Positions 7,713-12,554 of a DNA stretch of 31,522 bases are shown in pieces. The stretch's first letter is position 1; every line of letters starts with the position of its first letter. A program made the position numbers and the translations under genes. The notes beneath the pieces were generated by a model. It was not told where the DNA came from. It ran no database searches and saw nothing but the letters and a program-made list of their open reading frames with translations. The stretch covers positions 19,211,462 to 19,242,983 of the forward strand of contig NC_057751.1 of the NCBI RefSeq assembly GCF_004010195.1, in the 5' to 3' direction. The DNA comes from Chiloscyllium plagiosum (Eukaryota).

Positions 7713-8189
7713 AACTGGATTTTCTTTATATTTGCTCTGTTAGCTTCTTCTCAACAAATGAAATAGCATTCACAAAGCTGAAATTATCTGGGATTATGTT
7801 TGCTTGAATTTGTTATACATTCACTTGAACCAACAATCATATTATTAAAAAGAGGCATTGGGCCATATACAGACCCAGCAGCTGAATGAAATTTGTATGG
7901 TCACCATGTGGGGCCAAACCATTCTCCTGCATGTTTACATGGACTGTATGAGACACATTGATGATATTTAATAATATAAAGGTAGAAACAGGTAGGCTGA
8001 TCGAGAAATGATTCACCCTGTGTGGCAGAGACGACCAGCAAGGTCCCAGGCTCAATTACCTGGACTGCGCTGAGTTAACTATTTGAAATGGAGGCAATAC
8101 ACGTTTCAGGCCCACCAGTGTAGGATAAAACAAAACAGCTATGGTTCCTGCCTTATCTGGTGATCGCTGCTGTACATGTCCAGGTCAGA

Positions 8190-8732
8190 TGTTAAGGGGT
8201 GAATTTGCTCTGCTGACCTTCAAGAAATTAGATGCCCCGCGGGTAGGGTGGCATGTTTCTCTTACATTTTCTCAATCTAAAAAAAATTATATTGCCATCT
8301 CCTACTACTCAGAGTAAATTTACATTGTCATCTCCTATTCAGAATCAATAAGAACACTGCAGTTAAAATTCTGACCACGCCCTGCAGTTAAAACGACTTA
8401 CACCAGATTTTGCCATTAAGGGATGATCTACATCATATTGTTTCTGAAAATAATCAAATCACTCCATTGTGTCACGAGTGGGATGTGACTATGGGGGAGT
8501 GGCTGGGGGCTGTCTTGTGGGCATTACTGATGGAGATGTAAAATTCTGTATTAAAGGGAGGACTGTTCCCTTGTTCAGAGAGATCTCTTGGCACAGCTTC
8601 ACAAAGCCCTGCGAATAGGGTTAAGGGTTCCTCCACAGTTTGTACTTGCTTAATAAAGTTTGGCTGTTCACAGACGTTGGCGTATTGCAGTTGCATCATG
8701 TGTGTAAGAATCTCAAGGAAAAGAACTTAACA
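8190..8732 (+). repeat. 5' LTR (543 bp)
   Basis: Ends TGTTAAG...CTTAACA (7-bp inverted repeat); TATA-like TATTAAA 8549-8555; AATAAA 8652-8657; repeated at 11909-12433. Confidence 0.93.
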
Positions 8733-8734
8733 TT

Positions 8735-8752
8735 TGGTGGTAGCGGTGGGAC
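8735..8752 (+). promoter_or_regulatory. Primer binding site, tRNA-Leu type
   Basis: TGGTGGTAGCGGTGGGAC, separated from the LTR end by 2 nt; 16/18 match to the recalled complement of the tRNA-Leu(AAG/TAG) 3' end, TGGTGGCAGCGGTGGGAT. Confidence 0.85.
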
Positions 8753-8970
8753 TCCAACATATACAGAGTTTCTAGGCGGACTGAATAAGCAATTGTCTGA
8801 GTGCCGGTTATGTGAGACGGATGGGCCCACGAGGTAAGATTTACCTTGATCTCTTTCCTTAACCTATCACTCAATTAACCCCTTGTCCCCTGGGACTCTG
8901 TAGTGACGGAATATCTGAGGTAACGTACGCATCTGCACGCCAACGAGTTCGCTTTCAGAACCATAAGTTC

Positions 8971-9089
8971 CTCGAAAGGGAGGTTAGAGTCCCCCTCGAA
9001 AGGGAGGTTAGAGTCCCCCTCGAAAGGGAGGTTAGAGTCCCTCTCAAATTTGGAGGTTTGAGTCCTCTAATAGTGAGGTTTGAGGCCCC
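8971..9089 (+). repeat. Tandem 24-bp repeat in the ERV leader (3 near-perfect copies plus 2 degenerate)
   Basis: CTCGAAAGGGAGGTTAGAGTCCCC at 8971, 8995 and 9019; related GAGGTTTGAGTCCTC (9053-9067) and GAGGTTTGAGGCCCC (9075-9089). Confidence 0.9.
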
Positions 9090-9268
9090 GGAACATAGTG
9101 CATAAAATTAAAGATAATTACTGTGCCTGTCTCAACCACCCTGCCTTAGACCGGTTATTAAGAGGGGAATCCCCCACGCGAAGGTCAGGACCTGAAGTGG
9201 GTGTGGAGACCGAAGACACTGGACTAGTATAGAGAAATAAGTTAGGAAGTTCAGACCTTAGAAAAAAA

Positions 9269-9550
9269 AAGGGACAGGCATTGGATAAGTCGGGTGTTGG
9301 AACCCCTTTGCATCGGTTATGCCGGGATGACCCCCACATTGAGGAACGGTTCAGGCGCCTGTCAGGATTTTAAATTAAAAAATTGGGAAATGAAATTTAG
9401 CTGATAGGAGGAACTTGGGACATAGATAAACGTTTAAAAGCAGAGGAGCTAATTTGGAAACGTAATACGGGCACTAAATGGAAAACGTTCATACCTGCAT
9501 GGAGAAAGGTTGCTGAGGAAATAATGAACAAATTTAAACAGGCCAGCTGA
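9269..9550 (+). pseudogene. gag: Decayed retroviral gag matrix (MA) region
   Basis: Reads (K, probably former M)GQALDKSGVGTPLHRLCRDDPHIEERFRRLSGF*IKKLGNEI*LIGGTWDIDKRLKAEELIW...FIPAWRKVA. Shows an MGQ-type myristoylation start, TPL, and a WPxxGT(F/W)D-like motif of gamma/epsilon Gag, at the expected position after the leader. Confidence 0.65.
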
Positions 9551-11042
9551 GGAGAATAATGCACGTCAAAGAGGGGTTAGTGTGTGTGATAATGAGGGAA
9601 ACCCTAAGTCTTGGGAGGTGCTGAAGAGTCAGTGAGAGGATTATGATCTGAGTAAAGGAAAAATTCAGAAAGGATAGACAAAGTAAGGAATCAGCGTTGA
9701 AACACCAAGCTGAACGATCAAGTGGATATAAAGTGGAGGTACCTCATGACATGTCTGGTCTGCCAATAATGTTTCAAAATAATGACACTGATGACCAGCT
9801 ATGGTCACAATGCAGATTTCTGACCTCGTCAGGGACACCTATTCAGAACTCACAAAGCCATCTTCCTCCCCAAGCAATTGGCTATAATCAAATATGCTGC
9901 CTGCTGTGAACCAGCAGGCACTAAATCGATCACCTGCCCCAAAAACAACAGGATTACCAGACTTTGTCAATGTGCAGCGTTTACAGGGGGACGCCCCTGG
10001 ATCACTCTGCGCTAAAAGGCTTCTGGATCACTCCAGTTGGCTAACTGTTTATACCTGATGCTTTGTTACCAATGCTAATAATACATGGAATATTTAATTT
10101 TACTCTGCTTTTATTGTCATTTTAAGTTTCAGTTCATAGACGTCAGTTTAAATTGCAGCTGTTTAGAAAACATTCGTACGTTGCTTTGTTTTGTTAAGTG
10201 ATTACTCATTTCTGTTGTCTATAAGTTTACACAATACTATCAGCTATTGGTACTTGGTAACAAAAAAAATTGAAATATTTGTGTACTGATTTCATATTCT
10301 AAGTAAAACATATTAATTCTATCAATTGTTTCCAACATTTTAGAATTAGAGATCTGTGTGTGTGTGTGAGATGACACAAGAACTTAATTAGTATAGTGCT
10401 TACTGTAATTTCAGACAGGACACAATGCAGTGTGTCCAGCAATGGGCTATCAGTTCCATTTGAATGACTCTCAGTTGGCAGGACTGTTTAAAGATTGACT
10501 AGTAGTTACAGCAGCAAAAAAAAACTAAACTGCAAGGAAAAATCTACATGTGACTACTGCTGGTAAAGTTGAAACTTTATTGCTGGAACAGCACAGCAGG
10601 TCAGGCAGCATCCAGGGAACAGGAGATTCGACGTTTCGGGCACAGGCCCTTCTTCAAGCCTTGCTTAAGTGATCAGGAAAGTAGAAGACTTGAAATTAAA
10701 CTTTATTACAACTAAGCACAAAGTAAATAGTAACAGAAGTTATAGAAAAAAACTTAGTTAGGAATCAGGAACTGTGAAATACTTTTCCTGACAGCTTTCA
10801 CATTAGCCAAGTATTAATTTGTTAAAGGAAAATAATTTTTGAATAACTTGAATGGGGTCCCCTGAGGGTTTGATTTTAGGACCACTGATCCTTGTTTATA
10901 ATTGACCGAATTGTTTAGGCAGTACAATTTAGAAGTTGATGGATTGTATAAAACTTGATAATGTCATAAATAGTGAACAGAGTAACAGACTCCAAGGCGA
11001 CTGAGAATGTTGAAATAGGCAGACACAATTTAGTGTCGTTAA

Positions 11043-11200
11043 ATGTGTGACTGTCCTCATACTGATAACCACCTTGGCAAGGAAGGAATGAGAGAGGATA
11101 AGCAAAGATACTTTCAGCAGCTAACATCGTCTCTAGAGTTTCTCCATTCACAGGTAAAGCATGCCTTCGGACGACCGCCCACCCCTCCACAACCTGATCC
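11043..11200 (+). pseudogene. pol: Internally deleted retroviral integrase remnant
   Basis: [11 protein letters not shown] resembles the HxxxHLG zinc-binding start of integrase. It is followed almost directly by [19 protein letters not shown], resembling the helix after the catalytic core of class I ERV integrases; the DDE core is absent. Confidence 0.55.
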
Positions 11201-11225
11201 AATGGATTCAATCATCTCCCCAGTC

Positions 11226-11535
11226 ACGAGCACAAGAAGTGAAGAAGCTAACAACAGTGAAGAGGAGGTCCAAACGCTTTTGGTCAGTGGCCTTCCTATG
11301 GAGATTAAACCACGTGAGCTTTACCTTCTCCTTCGATCATTTAAGTGAGATGAAGGCTCACTGATCAAGCTAACATCAAAACAGCCAGTTGACTTTGTTA
11401 CATTTAACAGCAGAGCAGGAGTAGAAGCAGCAAAGAATGCTGCACTCACCTAGCCTGCTGCTGCACACTCAGATGCACTAGTATCCTCCACCTGAAGCAT
11501 CTCCGCAAAGATGGAAGTCTCAACAGTTTTGTTAA
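11226..11535 (+). pseudogene. RBPMS2: Processed, internally deleted RBPMS-family (RBPMS2/Hermes-like) retrocopy inside the ERV
   Basis: [60 protein letters not shown] matches the RBPMS/RBPMS2 RRM. It then jumps to the C-terminus (A.T*PAAAH..QMH*YPPPEASPQRWKSQQFC-stop; cf. recalled AFTYP..HAQMRWYPP...GWKSRQFC). No introns; in-frame stops and a frameshift. Confidence 0.9.
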
Positions 11536-11891
11536 GTATTTAACTGCCCTTATCCAAGAATTCAGATTTCTCCGTGGAGGGATGCACAAGGACAGACTGG
11601 ATTTTGTTTTCAGGTTGGAGTTTATTGAAGGTGTTTTTGGATAACTGGCTCGTTTCCACTCTACTTGGAGGGGGTGGAGTGGCCACTAAGGACTGTGGAT
11701 TTAAGAACTTTACTGGTAAACACTTTTTTCCCATGGAGGAGGATCCTGGGGATCCTATCTACTGCACGGACTAGTAATTTTTGTTGTTATAATCATTGTA
11801 TGTTGTGTGTCAATAACTTGCTTAAAATACTGGCTGTAAGATTCGTATGAATAAGTTGGTAGCACCTTTTAGGTGGTTATCATGGAATGAT

Positions 11892-11903
11892 AAAAGGAGG
11901 AAA
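11892..11903 (+). promoter_or_regulatory. Polypurine tract
   Basis: AAAAGGAGGAAA, 5 nt upstream of the 3' LTR. Confidence 0.8.
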
Positions 11904-11908
11904 TGAAA

Positions 11909-12433
11909 TGTTAAGGGGTTAATTTGCTCTGCTGAGCTGTAAGAAATTGAATGCTCTAGACGTAGGGTGGTATGTTTCTCTGTCTTACAGGTACAATGTG
12001 ATCAAATTTACATTGCCATCTCCGACTATTCAGAGTAAATTTACATTCTCATCTCCTATTCAGAAGCAATAAGAACACTGCAGTCAAAGTTCTGACCACA
12101 CCCTGCAGTTACACCATTAAGGGATGATCTACATCATATTGTTTCTGGAAATAATCAAATCACTCCATTGTGTCATGAGTGGGATGTGACTATGGGGGAG
12201 TGGCTGGGGGCTGTCTTGTGGGCATTACTGATGGAAATGTAAAATTCTGTATTAAAGGGAGGACTGTTCCCTTGTTCAGAGAGATCTCTTGGCACAGCTT
12301 CACAAAGCCCTGCGAATAGGGTTAAGGGTTCCTCCACAGCTTGTACTTGCTTAATAAAGTTTGACTGTTCACAGACTTTGGCGTATTGCAGTTGCATCAT
12401 GTGTGTAAGAATCTCAAGAAAAAGAACCTAACA
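11909..12433 (+). repeat. 3' LTR (525 bp)
   Basis: Direct repeat of 8190-8732; TGTTAAG...CCTAACA. Confidence 0.93.
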
Positions 12434-12554
12434 CAGGCAGTGTATTAGGATAGAATTAGGCTCCACTGTGATGTCTTCCACAGCCGAACAGTCTGCCAAT
12501 GCTCACTCTAAACCTGCACATGTACAATGGCCACTGGGCAAAATATATGAGACA

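Follow-up and report, generated by a model that had tools for sequence, protein, structure and literature searches.

The window analyzed here is a stretch of 31,522 nucleotides from the genome of the shark Chiloscyllium plagiosum, and within it lies an endogenous retrovirus (ERV) that occupies positions 8185-12433 and harbors, in the place of its env gene, sequence that corresponds to a spliced mRNA of the host gene RBPMS2. The element is bounded by long terminal repeats (LTRs) and, apart from the target-site duplication, all of its features are assigned to the plus strand. The 5' LTR is found at 8185-8733 and the 3' LTR at 11904-12433, both delimited by repeat alignment and by comparison of the ends of the window copy with those of three other complete copies. 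The direct repeats extend over about 530 nucleotides (8189-8712 against 11908-12413), with blocks of 74, 118, and 300 nucleotides that are 82%, 89%, and 98% identical, and when the two LTRs are aligned globally they agree at 485 positions and differ at 32, with gaps in a further 35 columns. The 3' LTR runs from TGAAATGTTA to TAACA, and it is from this copy that LTR ends of the TG...CA type are read; the first five bases of the 5' LTR have mutated (they are TCAGA, where the 3' LTR has TGAAA), and its end is likewise TAACA.

Two nucleotides past the 5' LTR lies the primer binding site (PBS), TGGTGGTAGCGGTGGGAC (8736-8753), which in other copies of the family reads TGGTGGCAGCGGTGG(G/A)AT and which we take to match the 3' end of tRNA-Leu. 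Between the PBS and a putative gag start, the leader contains a tandem repeat in which a 24-nucleotide unit is present four times (8970-9065). At the other end of the element a polypurine tract (PPT), AAAAGGAGGAAA (11892-11903), stands directly before the 3' LTR. An initial annotation, made from the sequence alone, had described just such a frame of LTR, PBS, leader, PPT, and LTR, and this frame is real: the LTR repeats, the PBS, the PPT, and a 4-bp target-site duplication (TSD) all attest to it. The LTR ends given at that time have had to be corrected, in that the true start lies 5 nucleotides further to the left. With the earlier start the duplication agrees at three of its four bases and with the shifted start at all four, so that a perfect TSD, CAGG, is seen to flank the element at 8181-8184 and 12434-12437 (no strand assigned). 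Perfect 4-bp duplications also flank two of the three other complete copies (C12 and C36, with TCAG and GTAG), making three out of four when the window copy is included. An Rfam scan of 8100-12500 returned a single weak miRNA-like match, which was far under threshold and was taken as chance.

Within this frame, pol and the transmembrane (TM) subunit of env are present as remnants only. The putative gag start, a possible matrix remnant at 9268-9560, is placed by its position and by a start codon that persists in a few sister copies; the codon is lost in the window copy, but two of the ten copies that cover the site retain ATG-GGA-CA and a third has ATG-AGA-CA. The segment 9650-10079 appears to join the end of RNase H to the N-terminal, zinc-binding part of integrase, and in a second integrase remnant, at 11048-11199, the last part of the zinc finger is fused to sequence that follows the catalytic core. 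Both assignments draw on nucleotide homology to the pol of autonomous-like relatives, which covers 9803-10079 and 11048-11179, respectively. On the far side of the captured sequence, alignment with an autonomous-like relative identifies 11738-11891 as the remnant of the membrane span and cytoplasmic tail of the TM subunit; the env end, the PPT, and the LTR (11738-12433) fall within one such alignment, at 69% identity. Ten open reading frame (ORF) fragments of the window searched against Pfam yielded nothing useful, the fragments being too short and too decayed.

The captured RBPMS2 sequence and its donor gene

The host RBPMS2 gene is located on another contig, C40, where eight exons were mapped that together span 106 kb or more; the introns measure 2.9-36 kb and have canonical GT/AG borders. 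Its RNA recognition motif (RRM) is split over small exons with introns of 6-36 kb between them, and over the tested exons the gene is 100% identical to protein P0106. The 3' untranslated region (UTR) of the host gene is itself spliced, with an intron of about 2.9 kb that lies 7 nucleotides past the stop codon (L060:8995, L061:1898).

In the element the same exons are found fused. The captured sequence opens with the 26 nucleotides that immediately precede the ATG in host exon 1, a piece of the 5'UTR (11200-11225, 90% identical to host exon 1 in L047), and passes into codons 1-72 of the coding sequence (CDS), which, as aligned with the host exons, are drawn from exons 1-4 (11226-11441). The CDS tail follows, made up of the end of exon 6 and of exon 7 as far as the stop codon TAA at 11533-11535 (11442-11535), and the last part is 3'UTR, composed of 7 nucleotides of exon 7 and 190 nucleotides of exon 8 (11536-11732, 88.6% identical to L061:1898-2090). 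Exon by exon, identity to the host is 90% for exon 1 (11200-11267) and exon 2 (11268-11345), 93% for exon 3 (11346-11384), 88% for exon 4 (11385-11441), 86-88% in the aligned core of the exon 6 end (11442-11472), 89% for exon 7 (11473-11542), and 88.6% for the 3'UTR exon 8 (11543-11732). Five exon-exon junctions are exact in the window, at 11267/11268, 11345/11346, 11384/11385, 11472/11473, and 11542/11543, the last of these being the exon 7/8 junction in which TGTTAAGTATTTA is joined to ACTGCCC. A sister copy that retains the whole CDS, L021, has seven exact exon junctions.

The initial annotation had recognized an intronless coding sequence of the RBPMS family at 11226-11535 and had pointed out that the RRM of such genes is divided among several small exons. 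The exact junctions, set against an intron-bearing host gene, confirm the former and allow it to be refined to RBPMS2, and the division of the RRM can be seen directly in the C40 gene. Alignment of the insert with the host mRNA, proposed at the same time as a check, has fixed the capture boundaries as well as the exon junctions. The further suggestion of about 300 nucleotides of 3'UTR holds for the 190 nucleotides of 11543-11732 and fails from 11738 onward, where the env TM tail and the PPT are found instead. A motif-based assignment of 11536-11737 to env TM was also considered, and is ruled out by the match to the host 3'UTR exon.

The identity of the passenger is supported at the protein level. 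A protein search with a 166-residue ORF from a sister copy returned vertebrate RBPMS2 and RBPMS, with shark RBPMS2 as the best match; the translation of the element, ...KSRQFC included, resembles shark RBPMS2; and Pfam RRM_1 matches ORFs of the family, including the part of the RRM that is retained in sister ORFs. By these comparisons the captured gene is RBPMS2 and not RBPMS. Transfer in the reverse direction would imply that the host gene is absent from other vertebrates, which is very unlikely given the conserved RBPMS2 proteins. Most ERV copies, like the RBPMS2 of other sharks, encode FDSRAG at a position where the host gene encodes FDCRVG (L043, L047), which suggests that one or two residues of the host protein were altered after capture.

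A family with two subfamilies

The arrangement seen in the window is shared by many other loci. When 11150-11900 was used as a query, all 40 of the sister copies that were scored, out of 667 first-look candidates, were found to span both junctions of the capture at 82-86% identity; outside this range lie the match of the window copy to itself and that of a single, almost identical tract. Counts of junction 24-mers, made genome-wide with up to three mismatches allowed, gave 384 matches for the exon 3/4 junction and 294 for the deletion junction described below, with none for the reversed control in either case. The exon 4/5 junction, which only undeleted copies can contain, gave 31 matches, some of which may be chance, and again none for its control, while the middle of the CDS (84 residues) gave 57 genomic matches, with host exons accounting for two. 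The family of RBPMS2-carrying LTR elements predicted by the initial annotation thus exists, as the 40 of 40 sister copies and the 384 junction matches attest.

Both the 5' and the 3' junction are also bridged by contigs from public runs that carry two other organism labels, and the contigs of one of these, organism C, bridge the deletion junction too. Because the copies are dispersed and contigs of other labels contain them, the family is no assembly artefact, nor is it limited to one label. The idea that the junctions were produced by misassembly, or by a rearrangement private to the window, can be all but dismissed: it has to contend with hundreds of dispersed copies on many contigs that share the same junctions, and with the contigs of other public runs that bridge them. 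Nothing was found in its favor, although one tract of sequence does show that DNA-level exchange between copies occurs. This tract belongs to locus L002 (G000:C42:19588502-19592252), which lies on the opposite strand about 367 kb away and is 99.5% identical to the window over 962 nucleotides (11123-12084). Just upstream of the shared tract identity drops to 93.6%, the two loci have different deletions and unrelated flanks, and the tract ends about 180 nucleotides into the 3' LTR, where the LTRs of the window diverge most. It looks like the product of ectopic gene conversion or of partial duplication between two copies; segmental duplication is ruled out by the unrelated flanks and by the fall in identity outside a single tract.

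Two subfamilies can be distinguished. The older of these, the full-CDS subfamily (loci L021-L040), has a few dozen copies and contains the whole CDS, about 80 nucleotides of 5'UTR, and the same 3' end as the window copy. The subfamily to which the window copy belongs has lost 171 nucleotides at the border between pol and the 5'UTR, together with 255 nucleotides of the CDS in frame (codons 73-157), with the result that the last strand of the RRM and the linker are gone. The 5' break of the latter deletion lies 6 nucleotides before the exon 4/5 junction and the 3' break lies within exon 6, both at a TGCATT motif; exon skipping is ruled out as its origin, since neither break is at an exon junction. 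By junction counts, this derived form outnumbers the full-CDS form by about 10 to 1.

The derived subfamily is also marked by an insert inside the integrase zinc-finger region, which comparison with sister copies places at 10080-11047. It amounts to up to 880 nucleotides, is absent from the full-CDS subfamily and, among 40 scored matches, was found only within copies of the family; most window-type copies hold just its last 272 nucleotides (10775-11047). Nested in the insert is an 88-nucleotide repeat (10568-10656) that has no Rfam match, is lacking in most sister copies, and recurs in both orientations at many unrelated loci, as a very common short genomic repeat.

In terms of viral coding capacity, the full-CDS copy L021 keeps the integrase core, with a Pfam rve score of 36.4 bits against a cut-off of 32.6, and one sister copy has a weak RNase_H match. 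The rest of gag-pol is deleted in each examined copy that reaches this region. The large deletion is shared by both subfamilies, which makes the whole family non-autonomous.

Capture, mobilization, and decay

The borders of the captured sequence point to how it was acquired. It is in the sense orientation, with the end of pol on one side and the env TM tail on the other, and about 2 kb of env has been replaced rather than interrupted. At the 3' border the break falls inside host exon 8, which in the host continues past that point, and the transition to env takes place across 11733-11737, a recombination zone of imperfect short homology between host CACATGGGAGGACCT and element CCATGGAGGAGGATCCT. 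At the 5' border the match to the host starts about 80 nucleotides before the ATG in all five full-CDS copies examined (host L047:772-796). Neither a poly(A) or A-run nor a target duplication was found at the borders of the insert in the window copy. A cDNA that is near-complete at its 5' end, shortened at its 3' end, and free of a poly(A) tract and TSD of its own fits retroviral transduction by template switching, and is the opposite of what is expected of a retrocopy made by a long interspersed nuclear element (LINE).

A LINE-made RBPMS2 retrocopy that fell by chance into the env of one provirus, which then founded the family, would share with the insert its lack of introns, as LINE processed pseudogenes do in general. 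However, LINE copies are anchored at the 3' end and shortened at the 5' end, whereas the shark cDNA is cut 190 nucleotides into its 3'UTR exon, sits inside an LTR element in place of the env sequence that it displaced, and has been amplified together with that element. With the border signatures of LINE insertion also missing, such an origin is highly improbable. The initial annotation had favored retroviral transduction over a LINE, from the sense orientation of the insert and its want of a poly(A) tail and TSD. Both borders bear these features out, and the exact junctions, the 3'-cut cDNA, and the sharing of junctions among sister copies uphold the conclusion; sister copies devoid of the insert, or a poly(A) tract or TSD around it, which would have spoken for the alternative, were not seen.

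As a single set of junctions runs through the family, one capture is indicated. We therefore regard 8185-12433 as an old, dead insertion of a non-autonomous ERV family that goes back to a single retroviral transduction of spliced RBPMS2 mRNA, and give this interpretation a probability of roughly 85%. The cDNA of the founder included about 80 nucleotides of 5'UTR, the entire CDS, and 190 nucleotides of 3'UTR, and it stood in place of env, in sense orientation, between what seems to be the C-terminal domain of integrase and the last part of env TM. During minus-strand synthesis, reverse transcriptase (RT) would first have passed through U3, the PPT, and the TM tail and then, at the short homology, changed template; the new template would have been either an RBPMS2 mRNA packaged alongside the viral RNA or a chimeric read-through transcript. 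RT would have copied this RNA toward its 5' end before switching back into the end of pol. The passenger of the founder may then have been expressed from a subgenomic mRNA of the env type. Given the abundance of RBPMS2 mRNA in germ cells, it is plausible that the capture took place there, as the initial annotation had supposed. The lineage lost most of gag-pol by deletion and still multiplied as an LTR element, with 4-bp target duplications at individual copies, probably by means of proteins supplied in trans by related autonomous ERVs of the same genome. A derived form that lost the 171 and 255 nucleotides and gained the integrase-region insert became the commonest.

Pol- and env-bearing relatives that might have provided such help are present in the same genome (loci L051-L057, L058, and L059). 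Their ORFs match Pfam rve and Integrase_H2C2, and the best matches of an RT fragment among solved structures are chains designated Reverse transcriptase/ribonuclease H p80 (E about 1e-8), which are presumably murine-leukemia-type enzymes. The TM ORF of a relative resembles solved class I fusion subunits of retroviruses and filoviruses, with a best E value of 4e-6, and syncytins more weakly. The TM ORF and the RNase H/integrase ORF of the relatives gave no Pfam match at E 0.01, and one of these two gave no match among solved structures. The relatives have decayed in their turn, most of their ORFs being interrupted by stops, and some have an env TM with a CX6C motif that resembles filovirus GP2 and syncytins. 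The family is devoid of gag-pol-env coding capacity, and yet it has made many insertions with TSDs of their own. Its nearest relatives are only distantly alike, and mobilization in trans is therefore no more than probable.

All of this took place long ago. In the window copy the ATG at 11226 is now ACG, in-frame stops are present at 11346-11348 (TGA), 11451 (TAG), and 11479 (TAG), and there is a frameshift at around 11455-11461. Its RBPMS2 ORF is dead, a pseudogene, and an open frame with a complete RRM is not present. Elsewhere, an open frame from Met to stop is kept at 2 of 19 window-type loci and at none of 14 full-CDS loci, the loci examined being the best-scoring ones rather than a random sample. 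Divergence amounts to about 10% between the copies and the host CDS and to 13-14% among the copies themselves, for which dN/dS comes to 0.71-0.94, with changes distributed about evenly over the codon positions. The RBPMS2 segments are conserved no better than the viral non-coding segments, with divergence of 0.12-0.17 throughout. LTR pairs in the family are 80-88% alike; among seven other elements, the LTR pairs of four are 75-91% alike by aligned block, and the remaining three have no 5' LTR inside the fetched stretch. To judge from these divergences the family is old and has decayed neutrally since insertion. With regard to expression, no RNA run was listed as containing the family, and no family reads were found in about 6% of one run that is on record as RNA, which is a small share; two further runs, only guessed to be RNA, hold contigs of the family, which does not amount to proof of transcription.

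The nature of the passenger invites the thought that it was of use to the element. Either the RBPMS2 protein, through its conserved N- and C-terminal parts, or an RNA signal in its CDS or UTRs could have been exploited to enter the germ granules or Balbiani body of the oocyte, and the consequent rise in germline transposition would explain the several hundred copies. In zebrafish, RBPMS2 is reported to be an RNA-binding protein of germ granules and the Balbiani body (PMC6049948). The insert has been retained across two subfamilies, the in-frame deletion spares the N-terminal two thirds of the RRM and the conserved C-terminal tail, none of the 40 scored copies lacks the piece of 3'UTR, and RBPMS2-bearing forms are numerous. 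If the idea were true, this would be a retroelement that hijacked a germline ribonucleoprotein-targeting module. It is nonetheless unlikely. The near-neutral dN/dS and the failure of the RBPMS2 parts to be better kept than viral non-coding sequence speak against it, as do the open frames at just 2 of 33 loci; moreover, the commonest subfamily is without the last RRM strand and, from the architecture of the RRM, would hardly adopt the canonical RNA-binding fold. For germline targeting as such, the identity of the gene is the sole support here. The success of the RRM-truncated form, together with neutral decay, suggests rather that the element could amplify without an RNA-binding function of its RBPMS2 passenger.

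A number of points tell against the account of transduction, loss of function, and mobilization in trans given above. A clean TSD is missing in one of the four complete copies compared. In the full-CDS form, as seen in L021, homology to pol and homology to the host 5'UTR are separated by about 145 nucleotides (L021:1237-1380) that had no match in nucleotide searches; a motif alone suggests that they encode the C-terminal domain of integrase. Pfam gave no gag match in the ORF fragments of the window or in the ORFs of the family, so that, of the Gag and integrase remnants first annotated, it is integrase that stands, through its homology to relatives with rve and Integrase_H2C2 domains, and Gag that finds no such backing. 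An autonomous partner with closely matching LTRs was not found: the nearest pol-bearing relatives have 68-83% nucleotide identity, a value that for the env tail and LTR is about 69%. Finally, tests of selection are weak for a brief active phase when most divergence is post-insertion, and the full-length RBPMS2 of the founder may have had a function. The in-frame nature of the deletion and the two open frames among 19 window-type loci could be taken as slight evidence that constraint once acted.

Related systems and significance

Several known systems share features with the shark family. In the mouse, ETn is a non-autonomous, ERV-derived family that is mobilized in trans, with MusD as its partner. 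Like the shark family, it consists of LTR-PBS-PPT elements that have no working gag, pol, and env and have nonetheless become numerous alongside relatives able to code for them; the autonomous partner of the shark family, however, is only loosely identified. To our knowledge, families of the ETn type do not carry a recognizable spliced host cDNA.

The capture of host mRNA by tumor retroviruses is textbook knowledge. In the acutely transforming retroviruses, such as those with v-src or v-sis, an intronless host cDNA in the sense orientation replaces viral genes, and the resulting viruses are defective and depend on a helper. As in the shark family, the junctions lie inside viral coding sequence and there is no poly(A). 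These viruses are exogenous and somatic and are selected via transformation, whereas the shark family is found in the germline, in hundreds of copies, with an RNA-binding passenger that bears no sign of selection. Retroviruses of this v-onc-carrying type are named in the abstract of PMC13297096.

The closest parallels come from crocodilians. In alligators, the CrocERV31 (ERV4) lineage has taken up an mRNA of nectin3 (Chong et al. 2014, PMC4299795). According to that report, an ORF derived from a host mRNA replaces env, and there are several germline insertions for which the authors favor spread by retrotransposition. Six insertions are described, compared with at least 384 junction matches in the shark family, and the nectin3 ORFs are intact and under purifying selection, whereas the shark RBPMS2 sequences are mostly broken and neutral. 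The shark family further differs in that it involves another host gene and another animal, in that gag-pol is mostly deleted, and in that a second subfamily, whose passenger is truncated, came to predominate. CrocERV29 is similar in that a spliced KIT-ligand mRNA is present in a germline-inherited ERV, but that capture occurred without loss of ERV domains, whereas in the shark family env was replaced (PMC4299795). The capture of host mRNA by ERVs in vertebrate germlines is characterized there as relatively uncommon. Beyond these two crocodilian cases no other germline captures of mRNA by ERVs were found in the open-access and bioRxiv literature, where we also found no paper that ties RBPMS or RBPMS2 to a retrovirus or retrotransposon in this sense. 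The shark RBPMS2 family is of the same rare kind as the crocodilian captures and differs from them in gene, host lineage, and copy number.

The family also has a bearing on gene annotation. Two annotated 'RBPMS2-like' proteins, P0001 (132 residues) and P0002 (126 residues), carry the internal deletion, and one of them has in addition a leader derived from integrase; from their sequences, both are most likely ERV-borne pseudogenes rather than paralogues. The approximately 400 copies are a source of such false 'RBPMS2-like' gene models, and they will confuse expression counts for shark RBPMS2.

What sets the shark family apart as a case history is that one genome holds the donor gene, both recombination junctions, the full-CDS founder form, and the derived form. 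Together these provide a record of a transducing retrovirus turning into a high-copy, non-autonomous element, and the germ-cell RNA-binding nature of the passenger hints that the capture occurred where RBPMS2 mRNA was abundant. The family is thereby of interest to work on retroviral gene capture and on shark genomes, with a practical use in their annotation.

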